Assembly (NCBI GenBank): GCA_973895155.1
Contig: OZ316893.1
Location: forward strand, 25,285,520-25,349,519
DNA: 64,000 bases
Direction: 5' to 3'
Origin: Marsupella aquatica
Lineage: Eukaryota > Plantae > Marchantiophyta
This document shows, piece after piece, positions 9,397-30,240 of the stretch. A program made the translations under genes and the position numbers. The notes under the pieces were generated by a model, which made no database searches, was not told the DNA's origin, and was given only the letters and a program-made list of their open reading frames with translations. The stretch's first letter is position 1, and each line of letters opens with the position of its first letter.

Positions 9397-9849
9397 TCAT
9401 ACATCCCTCGAGCTGCCATCACTATCATGCTGCCCCTCTCGACATTCCTTCTCCCTCGACACCAACGTCTCCTCATCCCTATCTCTCTCCCTCTCCAATT
9501 GTTGTAATCTCCTGGCAGCAGCCCGCTGCTGCTTCAATTTCCGAAGTCGAGTTGTTTCTGTCATTGGGCGCACCAAGCTCATCCAAAGTTGGTTATCAGC
9601 TGCTTCCCGATCAGCTGCTTCACGAGCAGGGTCATCTCGAGCTGGCGCCTCCCAAGCTGGCGCCTCCCGAGCTGGCTCTTCACGAGGTGGCTCTTCTTCC
9701 TCAAAAGCTCCTACTTCAAGAGCAGGTCCTACAAGAGTTGGTCCTTCATGTAGCACCATCTCCCATCCGCTTGTCTGGTTGGAGCGAGAACAAGAATTCT
9801 TTGCCACAACCTTCCCTGCAGCTGCAGCCTGCCGTGTACGAGGAGCCAT
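9397..9849 (-). CDS. Hypothetical charged, repetitive ORF inside the Harbinger element
   Basis: Open frame MAPRTRQAAAAGK... with 15-bp repeats (REEPA/REAPA/RDDPA/REAAD) and an R/E/Q-rich helical tail; no recognisable domain. Confidence 0.3.
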   Translation of the reverse strand: MAPRTRQAAAAGKVVAKNSCSRSNQTSGWEMVLHEGPTLVGPALEVGAFEEEEPPREEPAREAPAWEAPARDDPAREAADREAADNQLWMSLVRPMTETTRLRKLKQQRAAARRLQQLERERDRDEETLVSREKECREGQHDSDGSSRDV

Positions 9850-10255
9850 AGACACAAGCAAGGATGGGTTGCTGACTGGAGTATGTAATTACCCAAGCTA
9901 AGCAGTGAGAACTTGACTTTGCACAATGCGAAACACTCAGGGATAACAAAAAGTGAACTGGACAATTGTGCTCTCTGGCTTCAAATGGTGATGTTTGGTA
10001 CCTGGGAGTGGGAATGGGAATTACATTGGATTCCCAAGGTGCACAGACAGGCCATTAGATTCCCAACATTCCACAAAGCCCAATGTTCACGCATCCCTAC
10101 ATTGCCTGAAAAGCCAACGTATGTCACACATGGGAGCGCTATCCTCTCTCATGAGTTGACATGACATGTCCCCTATTCTTAATTATCTGAATTGATACAA
10201 GTTGTCTTCTGTCCTTTCAGTCTCCAATGGGCCTTTCAGACCCCTAGCCACATAA

Positions 10256-11683
10256 TCAGAAGTCAGCAAAACCTACCCCTCGTCGAGCCCACAAGTGGTC
10301 TATAATGTCATTTCTCAATTTGAAATGATTGTCTCTGTTATGAATCTCCCTATTTGCCTCCAGGAACTCCAACCAAGGCATGACTCCACGAGTAACATTT
10401 GGAGTTCTCACCCTCAAGTATGGAGTAAATTGTTCACCCCTCTCATCCTCCAGGATCATATTATGCAACACTACACAGGCCATTAAAATGTTAGTCAAAT
10501 TGGACTCAAACCAGGACCTGGTAGGCCTCTTGACGATCTCAAACCTGGCTTGTAAAACCCCAAAGGCCCTCTCCACATCTTTTCTAGCAGTCTCTTGGCA
10601 CCTGGCAAAGTGGCTCAATTTTTCAGTCTGTGGTGAGTGCACTATAGAAATGAACATAGACCACTCTGGGTAAATCCCATCCACTAGTAGATATGCTCGG
10701 TTGTACTCAACACCATTGACATAGAAGGAAACATTAGCAGAATCATTGACTACCCACTCATTCAGAAGGGGCGACCTATTCAGCACATTAAGATCATTGT
10801 TGCCCCCAGCCAACCCCCAAAATGCATGCCAAATCCAAAGTTCTTGATCAGCAATAGCCTCAAGAATGATTGAATTTGTCTTATCTTTGTCACTGTACTG
10901 ACCTTGCCATGCTACAGGGCAATTCTTCCACTGCCAGTGCATGCAATCCAAGGACCCAAACATTCCAGGAAATCCTCTTGCCTGGTTGATTTCAAGGTGG
11001 TTCTGGAAATCCTGTGCATTTGGCTTCCTCAAATATCTCTCCTGGTACAGTTCCCTAATGGCTTTGACAAACCTATACAATGATTCTAAAGCTGTGGTCT
11101 CTGCAATTCTACAATACTCATCCATTGCATCTGCCCCAACTCCATAAGCTAGTTGTCGTAATGCTGCAGTGATTTTTTGATGTGGAGACAAACCAGGTTT
11201 TCCTGCAGCATCACACTTCAATTGGAAGTATGTGTAGTGTGCACGAACATCAGACAAAATCTTATTGAACAAACGACTACTCATCCTAAATCTCCTTCTA
11301 AATGTGAGCTCACCATACGTAGGATTCTCTGCGAAATAATCGTTCCACAAATCTATTGCACCTTTTTCTCTGTTCCTATCCACATTCTTGCTCCTCCTTG
11401 GCCTAGATCCTCCATGCTTCCCTTTCCTTGGTCTTGTCAAGATGTTGGTGATGGCAAGTGGTCCAGTGTACATCATCATCTCCCAGAATCGCTCCTCTTC
11501 ATCCCAATCTGCTTCATCGTCCTCCACCATTTTCTTAAAATCAGACCTCCATCTTTCTATGGCGTCCATGTAGTCAACCAAAGAAGCACAACACCAAATT
11601 GTATTAAAAAGATCCCTCACACTCGTCAAAACGTGTACTCGATTCTCGTGAACCCTACAGACAACATTGAGAACTGGTCGCAC
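10256..11683 (-). CDS. PIF/Harbinger DDE transposase (Plant_tran/HARBI1-like); likely start at ATG 11569
   Basis: Uninterrupted ORF with FRRRFRM, ALRQLAYG, GSLDCMHW, LVDGIYP and KDVERAFGVLQARF motifs. Confidence 0.93.
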   Translation of the reverse strand: MRPVLNVVCRVHENRVHVLTSVRDLFNTIWCCASLVDYMDAIERWRSDFKKMVEDDEADWDEEERFWEMMMYTGPLAITNILTRPRKGKHGGSRPRRSKNVDRNREKGAIDLWNDYFAENPTYGELTFRRRFRMSSRLFNKILSDVRAHYTYFQLKCDAAGKPGLSPHQKITAALRQLAYGVGADAMDEYCRIAETTALESLYRFVKAIRELYQERYLRKPNAQDFQNHLEINQARGFPGMFGSLDCMHWQWKNCPVAWQGQYSDKDKTNSIILEAIADQELWIWHAFWGLAGGNNDLNVLNRSPLLNEWVVNDSANVSFYVNGVEYNRAYLLVDGIYPEWSMFISIVHSPQTEKLSHFARCQETARKDVERAFGVLQARFEIVKRPTRSWFESNLTNILMACVVLHNMILEDERGEQFTPYLRVRTPNVTRGVMPWLEFLEANREIHNRDNHFKLRNDIIDHLWARRGVGFADF

Positions 11684-12197
11684 ATTGAGAACTGGTCACA
11701 CATGAGAATTTCTGGCAAAGCACGAAGTGCGTGATGAGCGATGGCATTCGACACTACCACGAGCATGAGAACCAAACCCTGTGCAGAGCGCGTAGGGTCA
11801 ACTGGACTCGACGTGGCTAGTTCGAACCAGGCCGAGGGCAGTTTGAACCCTGGTTTTTAGAGGATGGCGGTCGGGAATCCCACTACCGCTGGAGATGAGA
11901 GTCCCGATGGCGGTCGGAGGAATTTTACGGTGTCAAATCGTACAAGGTAAATTTTGGGTTGGAGGTCAGCAACCTCCAAACCGTTGGAGATGCTCAGGGG
12001 TACCGTTGATGTCTATTGGGGTGAGGCTAGGTGCACTGGGTGTATCTCTTTGCCCTCACAGCCCTAGATGGCCTGCCATCCCGTGAGTTTTCAATTGCTG
12101 AAAGTGCTATCACCTCCTAGACAGGGAGGCATGAAATTCCCCTTTTGTCATGCCGAGGGACAGTGCCGCTTGTGCACATCGACATGTCCCTCGCATG

Positions 12198-12672
12198 TGT
12201 TGAGCATAGACGACGATCGCAACGGCAAGCCCATGAACCATCCAACGCACAATAGTCGACACAAGAGATACGTGGTTCACCTCCTTGAGGCTACGTCCAC
12301 GGGAACACACAAGAGAGCTTTACTGAACTCTAAGCCCGTCGGCTATACCGAGTCTCCACAGTGTAAGCTCTCCCTATCTCTCAAGTGGCTCCATAACAAT
12401 GAGCCTTGGTTCTACCTCTCCAAGCACACATGCCTCTTATGATATAGTGTGCAACTTAGTTGTACCTAACCACATAGTTGTACCTAACCACATAGTTGTA
12501 CCTAACCACATAGTTGTACCTAATCACGTAGTTGTACCTAATCACGTAGTTGTACCTAATCACGTAGTTGTACCTAACCACGTAGTTGTACCTAACCACG
12601 TAGTTGTACCAACCCACGTTGTTGTACCAACCACGTCATACCTAACCTAGACGTAAGAGTAAATACCCAACA
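12198..12672 (-). repeat. Copia 3' LTR (475 bp)
   Basis: tgttgagcatag...aatacccaaca; identical by eye to the 5' LTR except for one extra 18-bp unit. Confidence 0.95.
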
Positions 12673-12683
12673 ATCTTCCCCTT
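12673..12683 (-). promoter_or_regulatory. Copia polypurine tract
   Basis: Minus strand AAGGGGAAGAT immediately before the 3' LTR. Confidence 0.85.
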
Positions 12684-12863
12684 GACTCTGGTCTAGGGGA
12701 GAGTAATACTGCCAATGTATATGATCCCTCAGCGGGAAGTTCTGGACAGAAACCAAACCGGTTTCCCTCTCTAACTAGAGCAAACCAGAACTAAGCCGTA
12801 GCCTAATACATAGGAATGAGGAAGAGCATATATCAGTAATTACAATGAATGTTTAAGAAAACT

Positions 12864-15800
12864 CTACTTGTGATGCAATTGCAAAACCTGCAATACGTCA
12901 CGGTGTCTAGAGAAACTCTCCAAAGGAATCACTTTGGTAAATGCGTCAGCCGGGTTGAGTTTACCATCAATCTTGACTAGCTCAAACAATTTATCAGACA
13001 CAGCCTGCCTGATAAAATGGTACCTGACGTCAATGTGCTTCACTCTGCTGTCCATCACCTGGTTCACAGCAAGGTGGAGCGCACTTTGACTATCACAATG
13101 GAGCTTCACATTCCCCTGTGGCAATCCCATTTCAGTGATAAGTCTATCCAACCAAATCGCTTCCTTTGCTGCTTCCGCAGCTGCAACATACTCCGCTTCT
13201 GTAGTAGACTGAGCAATACACTTCTGCAAAGTAGACCTCCAACTTATGCATCCACCGCCAAGTGTGAACACGTATCCTGTTGTTGATCTCCTTCGGTCCA
13301 AATCTTGTCCATAGTCAGAATCTACATAGCCAATCAATGATCTAGCATTCTTTGCATTCGCATCAAATAAAAGACCATGATCCACGGTACCCTTCAAGTA
13401 CCTGATAATCCACTTCACTGCTTCCCAGTGTACCTTCCCTGGATTCGACATGTACCTGCTCACCTTGCCCATAGCCATGGCAAGATCAGGTCTAGTGCAA
13501 GTCATCAAATACATGAGACTCCCCACTGCCTTGTCATATGGAACCTTTGACATCAACCCCTTCTCTGTGTCATCCGTAGGACAGAACGCTGATGATAACT
13601 TGAAGTGTGGAGCCAACGGGGTACTTACTGGCTTGCTATTCTCCATGTTGAACCTTGCAATTACCTTCCTCGCATAACTGCTCTGCGTCAACCATAGCTT
13701 GCCAGCCTCCAAGTCCCTAGTGATCTTCATACCCAAAATCCTCTTAGCTGGCCCTAAGTCCTTCATCTTAAACTCTGCACTAAGCAGTGCCTTGAGCTTA
13801 ACAATCTCAGACCTATCCTTGGCTGCAATTAGCATGTCATCCACATAAAGTACTAAAACAATGAACCCAAAGACAACATTCTTCACCGGTTTCAAATACA
13901 CACAAGGGTCAAATACACTTCTGTGAAAACCTTGTGACCGAATCCAATCGTCAAACCGCTTGTTCCACTGTCTTGGTGACTGCTTCAACCCATACAAGGA
14001 TTTCAGCAATCTGCAAACCAATTCCTTCTGTCCTCTCTTCACAAAACCTAGCGGTTGTCTCATGAAGATCACCTCTTCCAATGTGCCATAGAGGAAAGCT
14101 GTGACAACATCCATCTGATCTAGGAGCAGACCAAACATTACAACAAGTACACACAATAGTCGTATTGTAGAGTACTTAGCAACTGGTGAGAAGACCTCAT
14201 TGTAATCCACACCTTTCTCTTGTGTGAATCCCTTTGCTACCAATCTAGCCTTGTAGACCTTCGATCCACCTCCTATGGAATTATCCTTCAGCTTGTAAAT
14301 CCACTTGCTGTCCACCACTTGCTGACCCTTAGGCAGCTTAACAAGCTCCCAAGTTTTGTTGTCCTTTAGTGACTGCATCTCCGTTTGCATTGCTGCAGTC
14401 CACTTCTGCTTCTCTTTTGAAGCACTTGCCTCATGAAATGAAGAAGGTTCTCCTTCTTCCAAAATTAACGCATCACCCTCATCATCAGCTGTAAAATCAT
14501 CCTCTTGCAGTTGAGATGAATCAACCCACTGTCCATACCTTGATGGAGCGCGTACAGTGCGACCAGATGTTCTTCTAGCCGATGACTCCGGTTGATCTGC
14601 GTGTGCTGGTACAATTTGAAGCTCAACAGCATCCACTTGTTGCTCACCAGCATCAACAAACTCCTCTGGTTCCTCTGGCACAGGAACCAGCTCCATAATT
14701 GGAGCAACTCCTTCTCTCCGGTCATGCACCTCATAACCAATCTCCCCCTCAACGAGATCCGGGATAGGAGATTTTCCTTTGTCAGTACGGGAGACCTGAG
14801 TATTCTCCCCCTCCTTCAATAATCTGGATTCATTGAAGGAAACATCCCTACTGACAACGAGCTTACAGGCAATAGGATCCCATAGCCTATAGGCTTTCAC
14901 ACCACTCTGGTACCCAAGAAAAATACATTTCCTGGAGGTAGGATCCAACTTGGTCCTATTCTGCTTTGGTGTGAGAGCATATGCATCACTTCCAAAAAAT
15001 TACCAAGCCATGATAGTCTGCTTGCCGCTTATAGCGCATCTCAAACGGCGTTTTGAAATTGATAGCACTAGAAGGAGAAAGATTTACCAAATAAGCTGCG
15101 GTATTGACAGCTTCTGCCCAAAATTCTTGTGGTAAACCTGATTGGCTCAACATACTCCGTGACCGCTCCAACAGTGTCCGATTGAGCCTCTCAGCGACAC
15201 CATTCTGCTACGGAGTATAAACTGTGGTGAGATGGCGAGTTATCCCCTGTTCTGAACAGTACTCTTCAAATTCCATTGAAGTGTACTCCCCGCCGTTGTC
15301 TGACCTCAGACTCTTCACCCTTGTATCCAAACACTTGATCGTGTTTCCAGTCTGATTCTCCACCTGGGCCTTCCACTTCTTAAAAATGGACAAGACATCA
15401 GACTTATGCGTCATGAAATAAATCCACACAAATCTTGAGTAATCATCAATAAATGATACATAGTACAACTTTCCAGAGTGTGAGGGAGTCGGGGATGGAC
15501 CCCACACGTCACTATGTATGTACTCAAGAACCGCTTTGGAACGATGAGTTCCAACACCAAAAGCACGACGATGCTGCTTTCCAAGAATGCAATGCTCACA
15601 AAACTCTAATTTACAAGATTGCAAATCAGAAATGAGTCCATTCTTCCGTAAGATAGCCAAACCCTTCTCACTCATGTGGCCTAGCCGTGAATGCCACAGT
15701 TGAGTCATCTCCTCGTGAGACTTGGTTACATTGGCCTCTCCACATACAGTATTGCCCTGTAACACATACAAATTCTTTTGTCTACTCCCCTTCAAAATCA

Positions 15801-17172
15801 CTGTCTCTCCCGACCTGACTTGAAGTTCACCATCAATAACGCTCCATTGATGACCATTTGAATCCAACACACCGAGTGAAATCAGATTCTTACGCATGCC
15901 AGGTACATACCTGACTCCGGACACTGTGCGCACAGCGCCATCAAACATTTGAATCTTCACAAACCCAATTCCCTCAATTTGACAGGAGTGATCATTTCCC
16001 ATCAGAACTGAACCGTTTGAAATAGAGTAAGAACTGAAAAACTCACGAATGTAACAAATATGAAAAGAGCAAGCACAATCAAGAATCCACACATCATCTG
16101 CTCTCCTAGATGACGTGCACAGGGCATACCCCCGGCTTCATAAAACATACTCATCATTGAGTAAATCAGCTTCTCCATCAGCCCTAGCCACATTTGCCGA
16201 TGAAGTTTCCGCTGCCTTTCCCTTACAGTCTCGCTTGAAGTGTCCAACTTGGTTGCACTTCCAACATGTCACCTGCCTCCTCTGAGGGGATTTACCCTTG
16301 GACTTAGATCTGGATTTAGATCTAAACTGGGTTCTACGGTCCCCAGTTGGTCGCTGCATACTCCTCCCACGGTTAACATTGACGGCAGCACCAGATGATG
16401 AAGGCTGTGACGTGATGTGCATCTTCTGCTGAAGATCATCACTAAGCAGAGAACTTACCACGTCATTGTATGAAATGGTATCCCTATCACGATGCAACAA
16501 CACTCGTGATAGGGACTGGTAAGATGGAGGCAATGAACTAAGAAGCTGCAGAGCCTTCGTCTCATCATTCAAAGTCTCCCCAAGGTTTTCCAAGTCAACG
16601 ACCATGTCGTTGAAAGCATCCACATGGTCTTGCAACTTCGTACCAGATTCCTTCATCCTGAAACTCATCAGTTTGTAGGAAGTGTAGAGCCGGTTCGACA
16701 ACTCCTTGCGGTGATACTTGCTCTGCAATTCCGCAAACAAGGACATGCAATCCTTATGTGCACCTAACTGCTTGATGATGGGAGGCATGAGATAGAGTGT
16801 AACACACCACACTCCCTGCTCCTGCATGCGGTCCCATTGTTTCTCATCAACATCGTCTTCACGAGGGCTCAGCAGTTGGCCCATCCCTGACGCATAAAGC
16901 ACTCCCTTCACCTGCTTCTCCCATAGCAAGTAGTCAGAGCGCCCATCATACTTTGTCACTTCATACTTGGGTCCCCCAAGCTTGAAAGTCCCCATCTTCT
17001 TCTTTACCGTGAGCTCCGGTAGTAGTACTGCTTCCTCCACCACACGCCGCACCGGTGATGGTATCGGTGTCACGTGCTCTTCCTCCTGCTCCTCTCTCTG
17101 CCCCTGAAACCTCCGCGGTGATCCTCGTGCTTCAAGTTCCACGTCTTCAAAAAACTCCTCCGAATCACTCAT
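12864..17172 (-). pseudogene. Copia gag-pol, disrupted
   Basis: Gag with CWKCNQVGHFKRDC knuckle; PR WILDCACSFH; GAG-pre-integrase WHSRLGH; INT HSDVWGP and LRSDNGGEY; RT YVDDML; RH GYVDSD. In-frame TGA at 16138-16140, TAG at 15208-15210 (in TP[Q]QNGVAER) and a +1 frameshift in a homopolymer near 14995. Confidence 0.93.
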
Positions 17173-18312
17173 ATGAGAAAGTCACAAAAAATGTTGTTTT
17201 TCACAACTTCTCAAAAAACTCGAAACTCAACATCGCCGCGTAGCCCACAAAGCTAGGAGTCCAATACTGAAAACCAAAATCAAAATCGAAATTTGACGGA
17301 AAAGTTATTCAAATTTCGGTCGAGGTGGGTAAAACCTTGGGAAACTCCCCCGTTTTGACCACCTCAGGGAATAACCGAAATACCAAGTACAACCCGTTGT
17401 CGGAATTGCGATGTGATTGGTGCGCTGCATTGCCAACTTCAATGGCTACGACCTCGCCGAAAAATAACCAAAAAAGTTATCGTTCGGCGGATGAAATCTT
17501 TGTCGGACGATCAAAAAATAGCTCTCTGGTTTTTTGGAATATTCTATGACCCTTGTACAGGCCCTGTGGGAATTTTGGAAGAACAATCGAGGGGCTGACA
17601 TGTGTCCTCGAACCCCCAAAACCCCCTACCACCCTTCGTCGTCGAAATCTGGTCGCGCGCGCAGAAAATACACACGGCAGAATGTACCCCTCGACACCAA
17701 ACGCAAGATATCTCACTCGGGTTTTGACGAAATCAAGATCCGATTTCAGATTTGGAAACTAGACTCCGAGGCGATGAAGATCGATATAAGAAGCACCCAA
17801 AACGAGGAAAGAACGAGAGAGAAAAAAATTGGTAAAGATGACAGATTTCTCTCAATTGCCATAGCCAATTTCGAATCATTTTTTCAAAGAGAAAAAAATG
17901 GTACCTTGTCAACAACGAATGTTGATCAATTGCACTTGGTGTCGTCACCAAGTCCAACAAGGTAATTGATTTTGCTTAGCCTTCCTCTTTGCATCAAAGA
18001 GCCAATCCCGAACTCAAAAACAATCGTCTTGCCTCAATCTCTCCGTTGAGTCAAAACACTTGATGCTTCTCCCTCCGAGTCGATTGCCAACTTTCTTCAC
18101 AAAATCCAGAACGACGAAAACTTAGATCTCTCTGCACCACGAGCTCCGTTCAACGATTTCTTCACACCGTTAGAAAGCTCTTGCCCTGATCTATCCGTTG
18201 AGCCCATAAACTCCAAGTTCCATGCGATGGAACTCTGGAAAATCCACCAACACTCAACGCTGGAAAAACCGTCATGAAATCCCGTCACGAACACACGTCA
18301 CCTCCCAAGCAT

Positions 18313-18324
18313 GCTCTGATACCA
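18313..18324 (-). promoter_or_regulatory. Copia primer-binding site (initiator tRNA-Met)
   Basis: Minus strand TGGTATCAGAGC, 2 nt inside the 5' LTR boundary. Confidence 0.93.
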
Positions 18325-18326
18325 AT

Positions 18327-18783
18327 TGTTGAGCATAGACGACGATCGCAACGGCAAGCCCATGAACCATCCAACGCACAATAGTCGACACAAGAGATAC
18401 GTGGTTCACCTCCTTGAGGCTACGTCCACGGGAACACACAAGAGAGCTTTACTGAACTCTAAGCCCGTCGGCTATACCGAGTCTCCACAGTGTAAGCTCT
18501 CCCTATCTCTCAAGTGGCTCCATAACAATGAGCCTTGGTTCTACCTCTCCAAGCACACATGCCTCTTATGATATAGTGTGCAACTTAGTTGTACCTAACC
18601 ACATAGTTGTACCTAACCACATAGTTGTACCTAATCACGTAGTTGTACCTAATCACGTAGTTGTACCTAATCACGTAGTTGTACCTAACCACGTAGTTGT
18701 ACCTAACCACGTAGTTGTACCAACCCACGTTGTTGTACCAACCACGTCATACCTAACCTAGACGTAAGAGTAAATACCCAACA
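18327..18783 (-). repeat. Copia 5' LTR (457 bp)
   Basis: Direct repeat of 12198-12672. Confidence 0.95.
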
Positions 18784-19094
18784 GCATGCCCGCTAGGTAT
18801 GGTTAGGGCTAGTGTACTACTTGAGTTAGTGTCATGTTCTTGTAGCGAGTCTGGGTTGTTCTTGAAGCAAAAGGGGTTTGTTAGTGTGACGCCTGGACCC
18901 GGTCCTACTTAGGGCATGTTTTTCTTTGCCGTTCTTCAGTTCTTCTTGAATCGTTGTGAGACAGAGTTTTTCAGAGCTGCTCGTCGGTTCCGTACACGGA
19001 ATTCACACAGTGATTCGTTAGATGCTCCCGGCCGATCTTGGCATCTCGCCGGTTTTCGATTTGATTTCAATACGTTTGTTCTATCACGCCTTTT

Positions 19095-19109
19095 ATTCAA
19101 GAAGAACTG
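19095..19109 (+). promoter_or_regulatory. Putative self-priming PBS of the Gypsy-type element
   Basis: attcaagaagaactg directly at the end of repeat A1 is the exact reverse complement of cagttcttcttgaat (18937-18951) inside A1; no TGG-type tRNA PBS. Confidence 0.7.
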
Positions 19110-20766
19110 CCGCCGGGTTAGCGGTGAAGGGAAGAAGATCAACGTTGTGCTTCTTAGCTGCTATGTCGGTCCAGATTTCCATCAAAGCCGGTGCAATTTC
19201 TTTGAGCAACAATGGAGGCACGGGTTGAAATTATGGGTTCAATATGGTGTTAAGTGTATACTTAACATAAGTATACACATAACGCTCCTATTGGAGCCCG
19301 ATTTTTCCTTTCCGGTTGCATCCAAGGACCCTTTGCTGCTTCCGACTATGGCTGCCGGCTGCTGACTGCCACGACCTTTTTCGGGCCATTTTCGGTGTTT
19401 TCCGGTCGCAGCGCAACCACCTTCCCTTCGCTTTACGTTTTCACGACCCTTTGGGGTCCCGTTCTTTCTTTTTCCCTCATCGGCCGTTGTTTTATTTCGC
19501 CTCCCCTCGCAGCTCCCGTCGCGAGGTGCCTCCCGGTCCTGCCTGTGTATACACATGCGGGGCTCATCATTGCCCCTGGGTCGCGCATAGGGCCGCGCGC
19601 GCCCTCCCTTCGGCATTTTTCTTCCTCCCTCGCCCATTCCTTCATTTGTTTCCTGCCGTTGCCAACATCCTCGGCAGCATTAAAGCAGGGGAGGGAAGTC
19701 CCATTCGAACTCCCTCACTCGGGAGTAGATTTTCACCCCAGGCCAAGGCAGGAGCGCAAGGAGGGGGCCCAAAGCCCTATGCAGCATTAAGAGGGGGGCG
19801 AGTACATTCAGGCATTAAAGCAGGAGAGGAGGGAGAGCGAGTGTGCCAGAAGAGGGCACAAGACCCTATGGAGAATGAAGGAGGAGGAGGAGTTGAAGCG
19901 AAAGCAGGGCACGAGGCCCTAGGCAGCTCTGAAGCATTCAAGGGGAGGGGGAGTTGAAGCGAAAGCAGGGCACGGAGCCCACTGTCAGCATTAAAGGAGG
20001 AGGGAGAGCGCAAGGAGAGGGCATGAGGCCCATTTTTCATTTACAAGAGGGGGAGAGGGGGAGTACATTTGACTCCCTCCTCTAGGGAGTCACAGTACTG
20101 CCAGGCACGAGGCCCTAGGCAGCATTAGAGGAGGGGGAGGGTGCGCAAAGCCCTATGCAGGGTTTGAGCACTTAAAGGCCCGTTTTCTTTTTCCTCGCCT
20201 TGCCTTGGGTCTCGTCTTTCCTTCTGTTTCATTTGTCGCTCGTCCGCTGCGCGACGATTGAAGAGTCTTCGACTCACATGAGGGCATGTACATAGGGCAC
20301 CGCGGCCGGTCCCCACTACGACCATTTTGCTGACGACGCGTGCCCGGTCTTTTTTCCGTCTTGCTTGCTGCCAGTCCCCGGGTCCACATCGGGCCCGATG
20401 TATACACTTAACCGGGCCCCATGTTTATACATTTGAAAAGGCCGATGTATACACTTAAGGGGGGCCCAGGTTAACGTTTTTAAGGGCCCATTTTTCTGGA
20501 TTTCTTTGCTGCCGCCACGTGTCATCTGCATAAAGCTGAGGGCCCGGCATATTCATCAGACGGTCAATCCAGCAAGCACAACACCGGTACAATTGGAGTT
20601 TTTAAGGGTCTTTTCTTTGCCGACGGTTTTTCTGTGTGTTTACACATTCGACACATTTCTGCCTCGCACCGTTGTTTCCTTTATGGGTTTCATTTCCTAG
20701 CCTTGGGTTGCCACTCCCTTTTCTTGTCAGTTTCTTTCCCATTGGCACCCCAGTTGAGCATGCAGC

Positions 20767-22398
20767 ATGTCAGCAGAGGGGCCGAGTCGTAGCAGCTCAT
20801 CGCCACCGACACCCAGGTACCACTTGCGGAGTGATCCACGACCGTTGGTGCCAATTTCATTGGAGTCTCGACAATTTCGCCGGCGTCAGCAGACAGCAGC
20901 AGCACCCACACCACGCAACCCTTCTGCTACATTTGGCTGTCGCTTCACCACTACCCTGAAGCCTGCTATTACATCTTTGCCCTTTACTCCTTCTGCATCC
21001 GTGGTTGTTCATGCTTCACCGACATACAGCATGGACGCCAACCACTCATCTGGCCGCATTGAACGCTTCAGCGGGCGGCCAGGCACTGTTTCTTTGCGTG
21101 AGTTCAAATCCACTTTCTACACTGTCGTTTACGAATTGGAGTTGAAGTATGGCAACAATTTCACAAATGCTTTTGCATTTAAGCAGCTAGCCAGGTATGT
21201 GCACCACGAGGCTTTGGATGTGTATGAGCAGCATTCTCAACGGTTGCTTGATGTCACACAATTGCCTAACCCTACCTATGCCACTGCAATTGCGGCTGCC
21301 TCACAACTGGCATTACAGAATGCCATTGCAGCCCATGCTGCTGCTCCTGCCACTTCCCCTCCTACTCCAGTTCCCACCACTGCACCAGTTACTCCCACTG
21401 TCTTGGCACAGGCTACATCAGGCATTTCTCCCACCATTGATTCCCCTGCCTTTGCTGATCTAGTGGCTGAGTTTTTCCAGGTTCTTGAATTGGAATTCCC
21501 AATCAAGAGTGCTGACAAAATCATGCAGTTGGCCACCTTTGTGAGGCAGCGCGATGAAACATTGAAGATGCTACATCGCCGGCTTCTCAAGCTGAAGGAA
21601 GACACCCAGAGCATCACCGACCTGGAAGCTGCTCATCGTTATCTTCGCGCATTGGAGGGCACACCAGCTCTCCATTCGCAAGTGTTGCAGCAAGTATTCT
21701 CAGAGTTTGGAGACAGCTACACCTTGCTCAATGTCTATGACACTGCTGAGAAACTTGAGTTGGCCCATGCACATTATGAGGCCAGTATTGCGCGTCCACC
21801 GCGATCCAGGTACCAGGCTGCTGCCCCTACACTGGCCACTCCTTCCCGTGTGCCACAGTATGGTTCCAAGACCAAGCCAGCACATGCTGCTTTCATGCTG
21901 CCATCTTGCAACTACTGTGGTCACCCTAATCACAAGGCTAATGAATGTGATATTGTTGCTAAGGATCTGTCTTGTGATTTTTGGAGGAAAGTGGGCCACT
22001 TGGAGGCAGTTTGTTTTGCCAAATTCCCCGAGAGGAAGCAGCTACGACAGCAGGCCACTCATCCTGCTCCTATTTCCACTCCCCCACCAGCTAGGAGGGC
22101 TCCTATTGCATCAGTTGCTCCTCCTTCCAGTGGCAAAGCACCCGGTGCTAACCAATTGCCCAAGCAGCAACAGAAGCAACCAGCTCAGAAGGAGGCTCAC
22201 AACGCACAGGCAACTCATGAGGTTGAGTCATTACGTGCCCAACTTGCCAACATCAAAGGCAAGTCCACTGCCTCTGCTGGTCCTTCTCAACCGGCTGGTC
22301 ATGTGCAACCCATCCCTGGCCCAGGCACCACTGACAGTTCAGCACCTCCACCCCGCTCTTTCTATGGCTTGCCATTTGATGCTCATATGGGTGAGTGA
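20767..22398 (+). CDS. Gag-like protein of the Gypsy-type element
   Basis: 543-aa ORF; IERFSG capsid-like start, RQRDETL motif, tandem knuckles CNYCGHPNHKANEC and CDF(W)RKVGHLEAVC. Confidence 0.8.
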   Translation: MSAEGPSRSSSSPPTPRYHLRSDPRPLVPISLESRQFRRRQQTAAAPTPRNPSATFGCRFTTTLKPAITSLPFTPSASVVVHASPTYSMDANHSSGRIERFSGRPGTVSLREFKSTFYTVVYELELKYGNNFTNAFAFKQLARYVHHEALDVYEQHSQRLLDVTQLPNPTYATAIAAASQLALQNAIAAHAAAPATSPPTPVPTTAPVTPTVLAQATSGISPTIDSPAFADLVAEFFQVLELEFPIKSADKIMQLATFVRQRDETLKMLHRRLLKLKEDTQSITDLEAAHRYLRALEGTPALHSQVLQQVFSEFGDSYTLLNVYDTAEKLELAHAHYEASIARPPRSRYQAAAPTLATPSRVPQYGSKTKPAHAAFMLPSCNYCGHPNHKANECDIVAKDLSCDFWRKVGHLEAVCFAKFPERKQLRQQATHPAPISTPPPARRAPIASVAPPSSGKAPGANQLPKQQQKQPAQKEAHNAQATHEVESLRAQLANIKGKSTASAGPSQPAGHVQPIPGPGTTDSSAPPPRSFYGLPFDAHMGE

Positions 22399-23253
22399 GT
22401 GCTGTCCTCTGCTCCACAGCCTGGCCTTACAGCAGACTTTTCAGATTCATTCTGCCCTTCTTATTTTGCTTACCAGCAGGCCAGTGTTGCCTCCCGTATT
22501 GCTCCCACACGCCGCATTGTACAGGCTGATGGTCTTGCTGCCGGTCCTATGACTAGAGCCAAGGGCGCTCGGGCTATCATGCCCCAATCTTTTCAGCCAC
22601 TCACACTTGCTGAAGAGCGCACCTTGTTGGCGAGGGGGGAGGGAGCTGCAGCTACATCCATTCCACCACCAGGTGCTGCTGACATTTCACAGGGAGTTGT
22701 TTCTCCTGAGCTGCTTGAGCATTTCACCTCCGGTATGGCACAAAGGATTCTTACAACTCCACTTTTCAGTTGCCAGGATTTACAGCTGGATGCTAGAGCT
22801 GTCATCAAAGCGCTAGAGGGCTCACTGCATTCTTCATCAGCCCCTGTGACACCGGTTTTGGAGGTCCAATCTCATGTACATACTGGACCTTCTTCTTCTC
22901 CACTGCATGCTTCCACTGGTTTGGCTATCCCAGTACCGATTTCCAGTGGTAGAGATGACAGTATTGTTGCAAATTGTGTGACCAGAGCTACACTTGATTC
23001 TGGTCATGCTGCTCCATCTTTCCTAGCTATGCTGTTGAGTGGGAAGACCATGGACACTAACTCCCTTCACAAGGTACCTCATCATTTGCCAAAAGTGGTG
23101 CCTAGTGACAGGACTTTAGTTTCCACCACCATTGCCATTGTTGACAACAGGAATTCAGCAGTCAAGTTGGAGGGTCACACTCCTCAAGTGGTCATGCTAG
23201 ACACAGGCGCTCAACTAGTGATCTTGGGCACGCCAAGAAGATGGGACTGCTGA
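22399..23253 (+). pseudogene. Pol N-terminal region including the aspartic protease active site; frameshifted relative to the rest of pol
   Basis: In frame with gag after a single TGA; VMLDTGA at ~23191-23211; shifts into the AKKMGL frame near 23230. Confidence 0.75.
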
Positions 23254-26200
23254 CTGATCATTTACAACAATCCAGGTGGCACATTCGGACTGCTAGTGGC
23301 ACTGTGGAGGATGTGCTGGGTGAGAGTTCTACTTTACTCACTCTCACTTTTAATGGAGGTACAGATCAGGAACTGCATTTCCCAGTCAGATGTTTAGTTA
23401 CCAATGCCACTACGTATGATGTGCTCATTGGCCAGGAGGCTTTGTTCCCACCAGGTTTTACCATTAACAACTGGCATGAGCATGCATACTACAGAGTTGA
23501 TTGGCATACGGATGGCTCACACTTGGGCTACATTCCACTTGATTTGCATGGTGCCCATACCCCTATGGCTCACCACTGTGTGTTGAAAGCAGTGCACACA
23601 GCTACCTATGTCAACCACCCATTGCAGGATTGGATTGAGGAGGATGATGATGAGGTGGCTATTGCACATGCTGCTGCACGTATAGCAGCACTTTCCAGCA
23701 ACGTGGATCATCAACCAGAGGTGGTACAACGGCTCCAAGCAGCCCATGGACCTTTGGTGGCTGCATTGCACAAATTTGAGGACCTTGGGCAGCATAATGG
23801 ACAACCAATAGCCCCAATCTTGAGCGCACCAGTTACATGGACTCCTCCTTCAGATGGCCTTACATTGCTTGAGCTTTTTGGTGGCATTTCTACAGGCCTG
23901 GAAGCTCTCCTAAAGTCTGGCATGGTGGTGAAGCAGTACATCTATGTGGATATTGATCCAGGTGCAAGGCAAGTGGCTGAATCCCATATGCTGGAATTTT
24001 CAGAGCGATTTCCCCAGCAGTTTCCACATAGTGCATGGAAGTCTGCATTTTCTTTCTTCCCTCCAGATATCCAGCTTGTCCAGCACCGGCACTTAACCCT
24101 TCTTGGCTCCCTTGATTTGATCATAGCTGGTTGGGAATGCCAAGGGTTTTCAGCTGCTGGTCACGGTGCTGGACTGCATGATTCTCGTTCTGGCCTTTTC
24201 ACAACATTGGTTCAGATTCTCACCTGGGCTCAATCCCTTTATCCTGCTGTTGGTTATATCCTTGAGAATACTCCATCTCAGTTTGACCAGCGTCCACAGG
24301 TCAAAGAGGATTTCAGTGTGGTCCAGCACTACTTGGGACCACCCCTTCTCATTGATGCAGTGCACTGTGGTTCTTATGCACATCGTCTTTGTAACTTTTG
24401 GACTAACCTTGCACCACCTTCCTTGTTGGAGATGGCTCTTCACCACACATCCAGGGACACTAACCTTATAGTGGACCAGATTTTGGATCCTGACAGTTCT
24501 TGCCAACCAGTTACACGGCAAGAGCCAGCACCTTGGTATCCAGCCAATACCATTGGACAACCCCGTGCTGCTTGGCCTACATTTGTGTCCTTTCCAGGTG
24601 CACATGCTTTTCAGGGTGATGGTCCTGGTCTGGTTTATCGACATTCTACCGGTACATGGGATGAACCTAGTCCTGAGGAGAGAGAACGGGCTATGGGCTT
24701 CCAACCCGGTACTACAGGTCACACCAAAATCACCAGGCTGGCCAGGAATGCTTTACTTGGCAGGGTAATGGATCTCAATGCTCTCACTTGGCTTCTGGTC
24801 ACTTGCATCCTTTTTCAGATGTACATTCCTCCAGCATTAGGAGCTCCAGCCTTACCTCTCCACAGTGCTGCCGCATGGCATCCAGACCAGGTGCACTTAC
24901 CTCTGTCCAACACTCACCACTTCAGTCCAAGTGTTGGGGGGGAGGAGGTCCCTTGTAATGCGGCTGACATTATTTCTGAGTTTCATGGTGTGGACCACTT
25001 TAGATCAGCAGGTACAACAGGCCTTGGAGAGGCCTCATCACCTTATCAGCAACATGCTAGCAGCTTGGACAGTGGAGAGGCTGGCACTTCTGGCTCTTCT
25101 GGCTCTTCAAGCACGAGTACATCAGGTCCTATTCCTAGTGTTGCCAACTACACATTTATCATGGGCAACCACCTGAGTAAAAGACAGAAGGACCAGCTGC
25201 TGAATTCGCTCCTCAAGCATGAGAATGTGTTTGCTTTCTCTATGAAGGACTTGGGTAAGTGCAAGACTATGCAGTTCTCCATTGAGTTGGCTGATGAAAC
25301 ACCTATCTTTAGGCGGAGACACCGTTTGAGTAAGCTTGAGTGGCAGCTGGTGGATGAGAGGTGCCAAGAGCTTTATGAAGTTGGTCTTATTCAGCCATCT
25401 ACATCAGATTTTGCGGCAGCTACAGTGATGCCAGCAAAGAAGGATTCCAGTGGATTGTGGACAGAGAAGCGCATGTGTGGGGACTACAGGCCATTGAACC
25501 TGGTCACACCCCAGGACAGGTACCCCATGCCGCGGCCAGAGGAGCTATTTGACAGCATTGGAGACTCAGACATCTTCACTCTTGTGGATCTAAGGCAAGG
25601 CTTCAACCAGATTTTGCTGCTTGCAAAGGATCGCAAGAAAACAGCTTTCCATGGTAGTAACCAACTATGGGAGTGGTTGGTGATGCCATTTGGCTTGAAG
25701 AATGCGCCCATATTCTTTCAAAGAGTCATGGACCAGGTTCTGCAAGGTGCTGAGTTTCTGAAATGTTACATTGATGATGTGTTGGTCCACAGCAAAGGAT
25801 TTGACCAGCATCTACTTGACCTTGAGGAGCTATTCATGAGGCTTAAGAAGGTGAACCTAAAGATACACCCCAAGAAGTGTGAATTTGCTGTCAGATCAGT
25901 AGTATATCTTGGGCATCGCATTCTTCCAAATGGAACCATGGCTCACTGGGCCAAGGTGGTATCCATCTTGGAAATGCCCACTCCTACCGATGTTCACACT
26001 TTGAGGAGTTTTATTGGGTTGTGCAATTACTACCGGATCTACATCAAAGATTTCAGTACCATTGCACACCCATTGTATGCTTTGTTGAAAAAGAATGTGA
26101 CTTGGACATGGAGTACAGATGTTGAGGCAGCATTTGCCACTTTGAAGGAGAAGCTCTCAGAATACCCGGTGCTGAGAAGACCTGATTTCAGCAAGGTCTT

Positions 26201-28139
26201 TGTGTTACACACAGATTGGAGTGCCCTTGGGATTGGTGCCATTATGGGCCAGCATGATGAGGAAGGTAAAGAGTACGTCATTGCCTATGCATCCAGGAGC
26301 AACAATCAGGCAGAGAGTCATTATTCTTCTTATGAGGGTGAATGCCTTGCTGTTGTGTGGGCTGTCATACATTACAGGCCCTACCTCTATGGGACCAGGT
26401 TTGTTCTCTACACCGACCACCAGCCCTTGAAGTGGTTGATGACCAACGACAAGCTTACTGGCAAGCTTGCTCGTTGGGCGCTCATACTCCAGGAGTATGA
26501 TTTTGAGGTAATTCATAGGCCTGGTGTGACACATCAAAATGCTGACACTATGTCCCGCAGCCCTTTGATTGCCTCTGATGATCCCTCAGATGCACGGCAG
26601 GATTTTGACCAGGTTTCCATCCTGCCTACATTTCATGCATCTACCTATCTTGCTTTGCTGCCATGCTACATTGTTGACCAACCTGTGGTGGACATATGGG
26701 AGGACAGCGACACTCTGAGATTTCTGCAGGATGGGGAGTACCCCACCCATGTTACTGCTGCCCAGAGAGACCAAATTCAGCAAAGGTCCAAGCGCTACTT
26801 GTGGAAGGGAGATCATCTTGTGCGCTGCTTGCCAGACAGGGAAGTGGTGGTTCCACCCATTCATGAGAGGGTTGGCCTTATCCGTAAGGTACATTCTGAG
26901 CTTGGTCATTTTGGTGTTAAGAGGACTTATAGCCTCTTGGTCCCCCATTATCATTGGAGAGGCATGCATGGCCAGGTTCGAGATGTTATTGCCCGGTGTG
27001 AGCAGTGTGATAGGGTAAGGACTTCTTTCACATCTTGGCAACCCACACTTCATCCACTCCCTATTCAGGGCATGTTTTATCGCTGGTCATGTGATTTGGC
27101 TGGAGAATTACCCCTCACGTCTCGGGGTAATCTCTACATCATGATCATGATAGAGCATTTCTCCAAGTGGATAGAACTTGTGGCATTGCCGGATAAGACC
27201 TCCCGTAGCACCAGCCAGGCATTCCTACAACAAGTTCTTAGCCGCTTTGGAGCTTGTGCAGAATGTCTCACTGACCAGGGATCAGAGTTTAGAGGAGAGT
27301 TCCAGGAGCTGCTTGATCAGGCCCTCATTGATCATCGCCGAACGTCACGAGATCACCCACAAGCAGATGGCTTGGCAAAGCGCATGGTTCAGACATGCAA
27401 GAAGGGTCTCTGGAAGATCTGCCTCACCAAAAATAAGGAGGATTGGGACCTGGCCTTACCCTACATTGCCATGGGGTATAGGATGTCCAGACATGCATCA
27501 CTGTCTAACTTTTCTCCCTACTTCTTGTTGTTTGGTCGTCACCCAGTTCCACCTTCTGCTATTGCTGCTCACATGCTTCAGGTGGTGGACTTGGATTCAG
27601 CTGTGACTTGGTCTGATGTGATCTCTGAGAGGGCTGCCCTATTCAGGAGGGTTATGCCCATGGCCATGGAGAATTTGGCCATTGCACAGCATAGGGACAC
27701 ACTGCGTTATGCACACACACGAGGGGGCACCTTTCAGCCCAAGGTCAGGAAGTTTGATGTAGGAGATTTTGTGTACTTGCAGCGGCAAGCTAACGACACC
27801 CTGGACACCTCTACCAGTCGTACTATTCTCAGGGTTAAAGCTATTCGACCGTCTGGAGTGCTAGAGTTACAAGGGGCAGATGGGCGCACAATTGTTGACA
27901 ATGCCAAGATTTGTGCCCCTTGTCATCTGCCTAACCTGGATCCCACCATTGTGACTTCTACCTGGATTCCACCTGTGGACTACCCTTGCAAAGTGTGTTT
28001 GCGAATTGATGATGCTGACCAGATGCTGCTGTGTGATAATTGCAATGGAGGGTACCATCTTTTCTGCCTTCGGCCTGAACTTACCCAGGTGCCAGAAGGG
28101 TTATGGTTTTGCCCTTCCTGTGCTCCACGTGCTACCTGA
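23241..28139 (+). CDS. Pol polyprotein: PR C-half, C5 cytosine methyltransferase, RT, RNase H, integrase, PHD finger
   Basis: YDVLIG (PR); LELFGG, IAGWECQGFS, YILENT, AHRLCNFWTN, ERERAMGF, LLGR (DNMT, ~23859-24790); MPFGLKNAP and YIDD (RT); LHTDWS, YTDHQPL, NADTMSR (RH); HSELGH...CEQC, SCDLAG, LTDQGSEF (INT); C4HC3 at 27987-28121. Confidence 0.93.
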   Translation: MGLLTDHLQQSRWHIRTASGTVEDVLGESSTLLTLTFNGGTDQELHFPVRCLVTNATTYDVLIGQEALFPPGFTINNWHEHAYYRVDWHTDGSHLGYIPLDLHGAHTPMAHHCVLKAVHTATYVNHPLQDWIEEDDDEVAIAHAAARIAALSSNVDHQPEVVQRLQAAHGPLVAALHKFEDLGQHNGQPIAPILSAPVTWTPPSDGLTLLELFGGISTGLEALLKSGMVVKQYIYVDIDPGARQVAESHMLEFSERFPQQFPHSAWKSAFSFFPPDIQLVQHRHLTLLGSLDLIIAGWECQGFSAAGHGAGLHDSRSGLFTTLVQILTWAQSLYPAVGYILENTPSQFDQRPQVKEDFSVVQHYLGPPLLIDAVHCGSYAHRLCNFWTNLAPPSLLEMALHHTSRDTNLIVDQILDPDSSCQPVTRQEPAPWYPANTIGQPRAAWPTFVSFPGAHAFQGDGPGLVYRHSTGTWDEPSPEERERAMGFQPGTTGHTKITRLARNALLGRVMDLNALTWLLVTCILFQMYIPPALGAPALPLHSAAAWHPDQVHLPLSNTHHFSPSVGGEEVPCNAADIISEFHGVDHFRSAGTTGLGEASSPYQQHASSLDSGEAGTSGSSGSSSTSTSGPIPSVANYTFIMGNHLSKRQKDQLLNSLLKHENVFAFSMKDLGKCKTMQFSIELADETPIFRRRHRLSKLEWQLVDERCQELYEVGLIQPSTSDFAAATVMPAKKDSSGLWTEKRMCGDYRPLNLVTPQDRYPMPRPEELFDSIGDSDIFTLVDLRQGFNQILLLAKDRKKTAFHGSNQLWEWLVMPFGLKNAPIFFQRVMDQVLQGAEFLKCYIDDVLVHSKGFDQHLLDLEELFMRLKKVNLKIHPKKCEFAVRSVVYLGHRILPNGTMAHWAKVVSILEMPTPTDVHTLRSFIGLCNYYRIYIKDFSTIAHPLYALLKKNVTWTWSTDVEAAFATLKEKLSEYPVLRRPDFSKVFVLHTDWSALGIGAIMGQHDEEGKEYVIAYASRSNNQAESHYSSYEGECLAVVWAVIHYRPYLYGTRFVLYTDHQPLKWLMTNDKLTGKLARWALILQEYDFEVIHRPGVTHQNADTMSRSPLIASDDPSDARQDFDQVSILPTFHASTYLALLPCYIVDQPVVDIWEDSDTLRFLQDGEYPTHVTAAQRDQIQQRSKRYLWKGDHLVRCLPDREVVVPPIHERVGLIRKVHSELGHFGVKRTYSLLVPHYHWRGMHGQVRDVIARCEQCDRVRTSFTSWQPTLHPLPIQGMFYRWSCDLAGELPLTSRGNLYIMIMIEHFSKWIELVALPDKTSRSTSQAFLQQVLSRFGACAECLTDQGSEFRGEFQELLDQALIDHRRTSRDHPQADGLAKRMVQTCKKGLWKICLTKNKEDWDLALPYIAMGYRMSRHASLSNFSPYFLLFGRHPVPPSAIAAHMLQVVDLDSAVTWSDVISERAALFRRVMPMAMENLAIAQHRDTLRYAHTRGGTFQPKVRKFDVGDFVYLQRQANDTLDTSTSRTILRVKAIRPSGVLELQGADGRTIVDNAKICAPCHLPNLDPTIVTSTWIPPVDYPCKVCLRIDDADQMLLCDNCNGGYHLFCLRPELTQVPEGLWFCPSCAPRAT

Positions 28140-28171
28140 CTTTTCTTCAGCCCTCCTTTTAGCTGTGGTCT

Positions 28172-28178
28172 GGGGGGG
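28172..28178 (+). promoter_or_regulatory. Putative polypurine tract (G7) of the Gypsy-type element
   Basis: G7 run about 30 nt after the pol stop, abutting the start of repeat B1. Confidence 0.6.
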
Positions 28179-28373
28179 ATACAGAGGTTTACACCTCCAC
28201 TACGAACATACCACCTCAGTTGCTTTTTCTTGGCACTTGTGAATGTGATTGGACTTTTTCTATGCATGTTGGTTGCTAGCAGCTTGCACATATGCATAGC
28301 TTGCACATATGCATTGCTGGTGACTTGTATGTTTTCGATACACTATATGGCTACGATACTATATGTCACGACA
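28179..28373 (+). repeat. Repeat B1 (195 bp, with an internal 17-bp duplication)
   Basis: atacagaggtttacacc...tatatgtcacgaca; matches 28737-28914. Confidence 0.92.
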
Positions 28374-28375
28374 GC

Positions 28376-28736
28376 TGTCATGCCGAGGGACAGTGCCGCT
28401 TGTGCACATCGACATGTCCCTCGCATGCCCGCTAGGTATGGTTAGGGCTAGTGTACTACTTGAGTTAGTGTCATGTTCTTGTAGCGAGTCTGGGCTGTTC
28501 TTGAAGCAAAAGGGGTTTGTTAGTGTGACGCCTGGACCCGGTCCTACTTAGGGCATGTTTTTCTTTGCCGTTCTTCAGTTCTTCTTGAATTGCTGTGAGA
28601 CAGAGTTTTTCAGAGCTGCTCGTCGGTTCCGTACACGGAATTCACACAGTGATTCGTTAGATGCTCCCGGCCGATCTTGGCATCTCGTCGGTTTTCGATT
28701 CGATTTCAGTACGTTTGTTTCTATCACGCCTTTTAT
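28376..28736 (+). repeat. Repeat A2 (361 bp)
   Basis: tgtcatgccgaggg...ctatcacgccttttat; matches A1. Confidence 0.92.
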
Positions 28737-28914
28737 ATACAGAGGTTTACACCTCCACTACGAACAAACCACCTCAGTTGCTTTTTCTTGGCACTTGTGA
28801 ATGTGATTGGACTTTTTCTATGCATGTTGGTTGCTAGCAGCTTGCACATATGCATTGCTGGTGACTTGTATGTTTTCGATACACTATATGGCTACGATAC
28901 TATATGTCACGACA
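28737..28914 (+). repeat. Terminal repeat B2 (178 bp)
   Basis: Second copy of B, ending ...cacgaca and followed by the TSD cttt. Confidence 0.92.
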
Positions 28915-29054
28915 CTTTCCTATATCAGTGGCCATGACAAATGATTCATAAAAAAGTCAGCAATCAACATGTCTCAAAGCTGCCTTATCAAGGAGACTAC
29001 CAACGCCAATGCTACTTCTCTATATATGTACACTAGCTCAATACCCATGCGTTG

Positions 29055-30240
29055 CACAAAAGAAGTCGTGTCGGCCAAGATGTCGTTGAGAAAAAAAAGG
29101 TGTTGTGTTGGCATGAGGTCGTTGAGAGAAAAGATGCCTTGTCGGCCAAGAGGTCGTGGAGAGAAAAGGTGTCGTGTCGGCCAAGAGGTTGTTGAGACAA
29201 AAGAAGTCATTGAGAAAAAAAAGATGTCGTGTTGGCCAAGAGGTCATTGAGAAAAAAGATGTTTGTCGGCCAAGAAGTAGTTGAAAAAAAGTTGTCATGT
29301 CAACAAAGATGTCGTTGAAAAAAAAGTTGTCATGTCGGCCAAGATGTCATTGAGAAAAAGATGTCGTGTCCGCAAAGACATCATTGAGGGAAAAGATGTC
29401 GTGTCGGCCAAGACATCGTTGAGGGAAAATACCCGTGCATTGCACAAAAGATGTCGTTAATAAAAAAGATGTTGTGTCGCCCAAAATGTCATTAAAATAA
29501 AGATGTCGTGGTGCCGAAGATATTGTTAAGAAAACAGATGTCGTGGCGCCCAAGATGTCGTGTCCCCCAAGATGTCGCTAAGAGAAAAGTGTTGTGGCAC
29601 CCAAATGCTGTTAAGAGAAAATATGTTGTGTTTCTTAAGAATGATGTTCTTATGTGAAAGATGTCATGAAGTAAAAAGACGTTGTTAAGAAAAAGAAGTC
29701 ATTTTGCCAAAGATGACATGTTGCCCAAAAGGTCATCAAGTAAAAAATTGTTGTCAAGTAAATAGATGTCATGTCGCCAATGATGTTGTTATGCCAAAGA
29801 TGTTGTTAAGTATTAAGATGTTGTTAAGTACAAAATGGTCAATAGATAAAGTATGTCATTACTCAAAGATGTTGTGAAGTAAAAGATGTTGTTAAATACG
29901 TCTCGGGCCTGATACCTGTGCATTGCACAAATGATGCATGTTGAGGTGAGATAATAAGTCGATGACAGAAAAACATTTCGAGCTGAGAAAAATATGTCAA
30001 GGAGAGAAAGGATGGCAAGGTGAGAAAAAAATGTCATATTAGAGAAAAACATTCTGAGGTGAGAAAAAGATGTCAAGGAGAGAAAAGATGGCAAGATGAG
30101 AAAAAGATGTCAAGATGATGAAAAAATGTTGAGAGCGAAGAAAGATGTTGTGGTGAGATAAGATGGCCAGGTGAGAAAAATATGGCAAAGTGAGACAAAT
30201 ATAATATATGCATGTTGAGGTGAGCAAAGATCTCGAGGTG
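29055..30240. repeat. Degenerate low-complexity tandem array (AAGATGTCGT-based, grading into GAGAAAAAGATGTCAAG units)
   Basis: Many copies of aagatgtcgtgtcggcc and aagatgtc(a/g)ttgagaaaa, decaying rightwards. Confidence 0.8.

Follow-up and report, generated by a model that had tools for sequence, protein, structure and literature searches.

The 64,000-nt stretch analyzed here (the window; contig OZ316893.1 of the Marsupella aquatica assembly GCA_973895155.1, positions 25,285,520 to 25,349,519) contains a dead, broken copy of a Gypsy-type retrotransposon family that carries split direct repeats in place of two complete long terminal repeats (LTRs). The left end of the element consists of a repeat A only (A1), and the right end reads B1, a GC spacer (28374-28375), A2 and B2 (Table 1). 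An earlier sequence-only reading of the locus had placed B1, GC, A2 and B2, the TG start, the CA end and the flanking CTTT on both sides exactly where we find them, and the polypurine tract of seven G residues that it had reported before B1 directly adjoins that repeat. It was also correct that the 5' end carries A alone; A1 is not contiguous, however, since a Ty1/Copia element splits it. Once this nested element is removed, the Gypsy element proper measures 10,178 bp. The first piece of A1 is identical to A2 at 52 of 52 positions and the second differs from it by 6 mismatches and one gap over 309 columns, while B1 and B2 differ by a single mismatch and one 17-bp duplication.

The Pol frame shows the Gypsy order of reverse transcriptase (RT), RNase H and integrase, preceded by a protease motif that was recognized by eye only. 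Among solved structures, the RT is closest to Ty3 (E 7e-68). Pol contains two further domains that the earlier reading did not mention: a Dnmt3-like methyltransferase, and a PHD finger at the C-terminus. The best solved-structure match of the methyltransferase is DNMT3A (E 2.3e-06), with the catalytic cysteine aligned, and its closest named matches come from Calypogeia and Sphagnum. No chromodomain match was found in Pol, the PHD finger taking that place instead. The sequence-only reading had described an rve-type integrase and no recognizable tyrosine recombinase, and both statements hold: rve is detected at E 5e-13, and no tyrosine recombinase was found in the Pol open reading frame (ORF; E≤0.01) or in 12 other ORFs of at least 120 aa on both strands (E≤1). 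We call the window copy broken because of the stop codon at 22396-22398 in gag, the frameshift near 23230 and the substitution of the third catalytic position of the integrase. Programmed read-through of the gag stop was considered and rejected, since all 11 relatives checked have a sense codon at that position. All 38 aligned relatives have the same residues at the zinc-binding and catalytic positions of the integrase, and the window copy differs from them at the third catalytic position.

Table 1. Features of the Gypsy-type element and of the Copia insertion within it (positions in the window).
Feature	Positions	Strand	Basis
Left target-site duplication, CTTT	12142-12145	+	sequence
Repeat A1, first piece; left element end, begins TG	12146-12197	+	100% identity to 28376-28427
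Nested Ty1/Copia element within A1, not part of the Gypsy element	12198-18783	-	LTRs 12198-12672 and 18327-18783; 5-bp duplication GCATG at 12193-12197 and 18784-18788
Repeat A1, second piece	18789-19096	+	alignment to 28428-28736: 6 mismatches, 1 gap
RNA 5' end and self-primer, both predicted	18937-18951	+	exact reverse complement of 19095-19109; pairing in predicted fold
Self-priming primer-binding site, end of A1	19095-19109	+	15-nt match to 18937-18951
Gag-like frame with zinc knuckle	20758-22398	+	stop at 22396-22398; PF00098 at E 0.25 only
Continuation frame ending in protease-like motif	22399-23253	+	motif read by eye, no Pfam match; frameshift into Pol frame near 23230
Pol frame	23145-28139	+	domain searches
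Dnmt3-like methyltransferase in Pol	about 23850-24830	+	PF00145, E 8.3e-06
RT in Pol	25461-25922	+	domain search
RNase H in Pol	26109-26498	+	domain search
Integrase in Pol	26856-27359	+	rve, E 5e-13; third catalytic position (27378-27380) substituted
PHD finger, Pol C-terminus	27987-28121	+	domain search
G7 polypurine tract adjoining B1	28172-28178	+	sequence; relatives also have a G run before B1
Repeat B1, 195 bp, including a 17-bp duplication that B2 lacks	28179-28373	+	repeat alignment
Palindrome GACA-GC-TGTC across the B1/A2 junction; predicted integrase cut site	28370-28379		relatives' junctions
Repeat A2, 361 bp	28376-28736	+	repeat alignment
Repeat B2, 178 bp; right element end, CA	28737-28914	+	A2/B2 joint 28736/28737 is the predicted join of two cDNA ends
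Right target-site duplication, CTTT	28915-28918	+	sequence

An alignment of the integrase-PHD region confirmed 381 metagenome stretches as relatives, the best 80 of which were kept (L001-L080). Matches to A or B follow Pol in 70 of the 80 loci, and these collapse by their 3' flank into 55 distinct insertions. Thirty of the 55 end in B-A-B: 27 intact, two with an interrupted B1 and one (L045) with a damaged B1. The remaining 3' ends are B only (20), B-A (3) or cut by the contig end (2). Eleven distinct loci show both ends, and a complete A+B repeat is present at the 5' end in none of them. Target-site duplications of 4 bp could be scored in 10 two-ended relatives and are exact in seven, comprising five copies of the form A-internal-B-A-B and two (L023 and L029) of the form A-internal-B; two more match at three of four positions, and one shows none. 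Contigs that belong to the subfamily of the window element, drawn from four runs in two studies, depart from the reference after 28373 (at least 3, 3, 7 and 4 contigs per run) or before 28376 (at least 7, 3, 9 and 6), with flanks that are mutually unlike. The split-repeat layout is therefore real, programmed and family-wide. The sequence-only reading had asked whether independent insertions share the layout, each with its own 4-bp duplication; the flanks agree exactly or nearly in nine relatives and fail to do so in L041, and the ordinary copies with two complete A+B LTRs that the same reading had allowed for do not appear among the two-ended relatives. It had not mentioned the A-internal-B form, which is common among relatives. 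The right ends at L052:9335 and L055:11506 lie at an inner copy of a tandem motif near the end of B, in L052 with a matching duplication, which suggests an alternative cut or a lost unit. The flanks of the 80 loci showed no solo A-B unit, which is a weak test and not a whole-genome census, and two scans of viral contigs returned no relatives.

Seven additional contigs (L081-L087), which lie in prokaryotic genome bins and are probably contaminants, also encode relatives of the window retrotransposon. One of them, L082, shows the full B-A-B layout at 55% identity. In L087 (3805-8463), a methyltransferase-like region is situated between RNase H and integrase and not before RT; therefore, the position of this domain has changed within the lineage.

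The junction between B1 and A2 lies within the palindrome GACA-GC-TGTC. Its spacer is 2 nt long in all 34 distinct loci, and in 32 of these it is GC or a C-to-T or G-to-A derivative. The palindrome is also found in distant loci with integrase identities of 42-56% (L038, L081, L082, L083, L086 and L087): it lies 56-115 nt after a G tract, intact in L081, L082, L083 and L086 and with one transition in L038, and L087 ends within it. Two other contigs, L084 and L085, stop short of any junction. By chance, the pattern would occur about 0.015 times per kb. The palindrome holds CAG/CTG sites, and nearly all variants among L001-L080 are C-to-T or G-to-A changes at those sites, suggesting that the cut site may be methylated in the host. 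The circular appearance of L081, and the reading of L038, L083 and L086 from B-GC-A into 5' sequence, were considered as real circles, an interpretation we rejected because a collapsed multi-copy repeat looks alike.

The sequence-only reading had noted a site resembling a primer-binding site after A1. The site is present; it is, however, the complement of the interior of A1 and not a transfer RNA (tRNA) site. None of 1000 shuffles reached the 15-nt exact complement between 19095-19109 and 18937-18951, the best giving 12. The pair forms in the predicted fold; taken as a whole, the 188-nt fold shows no unusual stability (z -1.06). In relatives, the self-primer and its partner differ in sequence between subfamilies with their complementarity kept, and the self-primer partner is often found ~30 nt downstream of a TATA-like motif. 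Where A1 is visible (12 loci), the complement spans 9-16 nt in seven, the others having a match of 6-8 nt or a best match that is decayed, and it spans 12-16 nt in the distant loci L038, L081 and L083. By these signals, which match self-priming as described for Tf1/Sushi and Tcn1, self-priming would replace tRNA priming. Given a G tract before B1 and a primer site after A1, established LTR replication would copy a repeat of the form B-GC-A, with ends other than those of the inserted element. The same two signals support the copied unit, B+A, that had been proposed from the sequence alone. In L081 and L082 the beginnings of B and of the primer site resemble each other over a short length, which could help the ends to join; this resemblance was not seen in L083, and we draw no claim from it.

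If B-GC-A is the copied repeat, the A|B joint lies where its two ends meet, and this joint is ragged. Across 30 distinct loci, eight have the modal form, eight are two nt shorter at a shared AT, five are one base longer, three carry large deletions or insertions and six differ in other ways. In L070, the joint contains 135 nt from upstream of the G tract together with the tract itself, as expected if B2 begins at the plus-strand start, where a plus strand begun too early would leave such sequence behind. In addition, B2 is nearer its own B1 than other B2s in 25 of 27 loci (0.908 versus 0.869), and by thirds of B this holds in 20, 21 and 21 of 25 loci, with two short loci left out. Likewise, A1 resembles its own A2 more than it does others in seven of seven loci. 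The closeness of both pairs makes it likely that the two repeats are recopied from a single template in each cycle, and the A|B joint is likely the point at which cDNA ends were joined.

Insertions of this family thus begin and end at the palindrome, which lies inside the repeat between the polypurine tract and the primer site. We consider it probable that they arise by ordinary reverse transcription, an integrase cut inside the upstream repeat in place of one at the cDNA ends, and end joining of those cDNA ends. The RNA would begin inside A1, and its first 13-16 nt would pair by folding back with the site that follows A1 and so serve as the minus-strand primer. As in established LTR replication, the plus strand would then start from the G tract before B1, giving a cDNA of the form (B-GC-A)-internal-(B-GC-A). 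Within the upstream copy, integrase is predicted to cut each strand of the palindrome after CA in a staggered fashion, to remove the shared GC and to insert with a 4-bp duplication. The A end and the B start, which would be the true cDNA ends, may be joined by imprecise host end joining to give A-internal-B-A-B. The upstream copy would be the one cut, putatively because it becomes double-stranded first during plus-strand synthesis. Joining before insertion, which would pass through a two-repeat circle, is modestly favored over joining after insertion. The A-internal-B form may come from one-repeat circles, from cuts in both copies or from later recombination between B1 and B2, and it should be a dead end because it lacks a repeated R region. 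The sequence-only reading had arrived at a programmed layout, a B+A unit and ends made at B|A by a reaction of the DDE-integrase type, and this much is supported by the TG..CA ends, the 4-bp duplications and the ragged A|B join; its prior closed two-LTR circle is not established by the data.

Several observations weigh against this scheme, which is built on sequence comparison. A freely cut circle with two equal B|A junctions predicts the mirror form A-B-A-internal-B, with B before A, equally often. However, this form is seen at none of 14 visible 5' ends (local scores of 14-28 versus 225 for the control; p 0.004 for symmetry on the eight two-repeat copies alone), and therefore a bias to the upstream copy must be added. 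In two of the 55 insertions, L035 and L062, the copy terminates at the predicted cDNA end and no B2 follows in the available sequence; such ends fit a linear substrate and are not easily produced by a route in which the circle comes first. In L034 and L036, B2 lies no nearer to its own B1 than to other B2s, and gene conversion could also cause the likeness of B1 and B2. Among the two-ended relatives, L041 is without a duplication, L055 could not be scored because its start is decayed, and the right end of L052, at an inner repeat of B, was placed after inspection. Finally, four of the six distant loci read from B-GC-A straight into 5' sequence and are possibly collapsed assemblies that show the junction and not the full layout.

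Other routes to the same layout have to be set against these data. In one, the family would copy itself as PAT and Ngaro elements do and use integrase for insertion: the RNA would start within A1 and finish within B2, copying of the internal B1-A2 joint would complete the cDNA ends, and the circle would close at a new B|A joint. The palindrome would still be the cut site, so the duplications and ends fit, and the A1-B1-A2-B2 layout is common to PAT and Ngaro elements (PMC4157794). However, the RNA would in that case pass on the 5' part of B2 along with the A|B joint, whereas the first third of B2 is also nearer its own B1 (20 of 25 loci) and the L070 joint holds pre-tract sequence. The G tract before B1 and the self-primer site after A1, which are kept family-wide, are not needed by such a route, and we regard it as unlikely. 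Slightly less likely still, A-internal-B could be the normal product, from a one-repeat circle or cuts in both copies, with B-A-B arising secondarily, for example by tandem insertion or by recombination with a cDNA. The 20 of 55 distinct 3' ends with B only and the exact duplications of L023 and L029 speak for this possibility. Against it, B-A-B is the commoner form (30 of 55) with its own duplication around the whole unit, A1 is nearer its own A2 in every locus compared (seven of seven), and A-internal-B lacks the repeated region on which the first strand transfer depends.

It is very improbable that a tyrosine recombinase acting in trans inserts the circle while the integrase takes no part. 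Elements with a tyrosine recombinase are where this layout is otherwise known (PMC4157794); nevertheless, no recombinase was found in the ORFs of the element, the TG..CA ends are flanked by 4-bp duplications of unrelated sequence, and the zinc-binding and catalytic positions of the integrase are invariant in the 38 relatives. One might suspect that an ordinary element with a complete A+B LTR at each end was rearranged at this locus only, as A2+B2 by itself resembles a normal TG..CA LTR. That explanation is refuted by the absence of a complete 5' A+B repeat in all 11 two-ended relatives and by the occurrence of B-A-B in 30 of 55 insertions and in the 55%-identity relative L082.

The split-repeat layout had one prior mention, and the window locus is a new member of the family concerned; the sequence-only reading had missed this mention. 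For KnitGypsy-Dnmt3 (de Mendoza et al. 2018), the legend of Figure 4c gives the repeat structure of a DIRS element together with Gypsy domains, and a yeast test of its methyltransferase was inconclusive (PMC5890265). The group name Gypsy-DNMT3 is used in a 2026 preprint (bioRxiv 10.64898/2026.05.21.726589), and the window element, which shares with KnitGypsy-Dnmt3 the Dnmt3-like domain in a Gypsy Pol and DIRS-like split repeats with Gypsy domains (PMC5890265), files with this group. The sections of the 2018 account drawn on here concern one species; they propose no mechanism and report neither a palindrome nor duplications, a self-primer, a PHD finger or copies of the A-internal-B form (PMC5890265). 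The lineage found here is wider than that one species and takes in proteins from Marchantia, Closterium, Coleochaete and chlorophytes, many of which have no methylase domain listed. In an RT-RNase H tree of 110 rows, from which 11 of 120 matches were left out for short RT cover and which was built without REXdb/GyDB reference lineages, 95 rows (window, Klebsormidium, Marchantia, Closterium, Coleochaete and chlorophytes) separate from 15 other Gypsy rows with an SH-aLRT (Shimodaira-Hasegawa-like approximate likelihood ratio test) of 100. The Klebsormidium protein P0036, which has methylase, RT and integrase domains and which we take to be KnitGypsy-Dnmt3, lies on the window's side of the tree, and no supported branch joins the window to P0036 specifically. 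The literature searched yielded only the 2018 legend and no description of either the palindrome or the mechanism, and subscription journals, Repbase reports and theses may hold a fuller one; the integration route is likely undescribed.

The A1-internal-B1-A2-B2 arrangement is shared with PAT, TOC, Kangaroo, Ngaro and VIPER (PMC4157794). Unlike these, the window element has a Ty3-like RT, a DDE-type integrase, a G tract, a primer site, TG..CA ends and 4-bp duplications, and no tyrosine recombinase was found in the ORFs searched; the likeness in layout is convergent. With the Tf1/Sushi and Tcn1 chromoviruses (PMC6317226), the last of which occurs in mosses, the element shares the Gypsy domain order and self-priming, here judged by sequence complement. 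Those elements are described with two ordinary LTRs (PMC6317226), whereas the window element has split repeats and a PHD finger, and no chromodomain match. By the usual Ty3/Gypsy features, TG..CA ends and a short duplication are present and two complete terminal LTRs are not, the 5' end being A only and the 3' end B-A-B or B. The element thus copies like Gypsy but is structurally not a canonical LTR element. The closest parallel to the predicted cut comes from retroviruses. Foamy-virus integrase cuts the CA-NN-TG palindrome of the 2-LTR junction on both strands after CA in vitro, leaving 2-nt 5' overhangs (PMC1180852), and human immunodeficiency virus type 1 (HIV-1) integrase also cleaves its 2-LTR junction palindrome in vitro (PMC1905944). 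The cut geometry and the loss of two nucleotides upon insertion would be the same in the window family (PMC1180852, PMC1905944). In the viruses, however, the palindrome has to be created by ligation of the cDNA ends, and its cleavage restores ordinary LTRs (PMC1180852, PMC1905944), whereas in the window family it is built into the repeat at a distance from the cDNA ends, which leaves the inserted repeats split.

Other features of the window concern neighboring elements and genes. The nested Copia element, on the minus strand, is young, as its LTRs are identical across 457 aligned bases except for one 18-bp tandem unit; its gag, integrase and RT occupy separate stop-bounded frames. Directly 3' of the Gypsy element, positions 29044-30188 contain a G/A-rich degenerate tandem array with units of ~17-35 and 76 bp. 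To the left, a convergent ORF pair of PIF/Harbinger type (7970-11695) encodes a NAM-associated domain on the plus strand and Plant_tran/DDE_Tnp_4 on the minus strand, ending ~450 bp from the element. Pieces of host genes are found at 37142-41111 and 52859-53506, with D-3-phosphoglycerate dehydrogenase domains on the plus strand and a WRC domain on the minus strand.

LTR elements and retroviruses are defined by an integrase that acts at the two ends of a linear cDNA. The present family, which is multi-copy in the genomes sampled, appears to uncouple two pairs of ends, one set by reverse transcription and another used by integrase. In its boldest form, to which we give slightly less than an even chance, the proposal is that a lineage extending from chlorophytes to bryophytes has moved its integrase sites into a ready-made palindrome and replicates only through an end-joined two-repeat circle and one-sided cleavage, a third route to split direct repeats that does without a tyrosine recombinase. 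Two-terminal-LTR search tools would likely miss or mis-trim such elements. Host end joining is a predicted requirement for their transposition. In vitro work on foamy virus and HIV has led to the argument that cleavage of a junction palindrome can be productive for integration (PMC1180852, PMC1905944), and the family offers a natural test of this. If the boldest form of the proposal is correct, the two-repeat circle, a by-product in retroviruses, would be a working intermediate of a natural LTR-type element.

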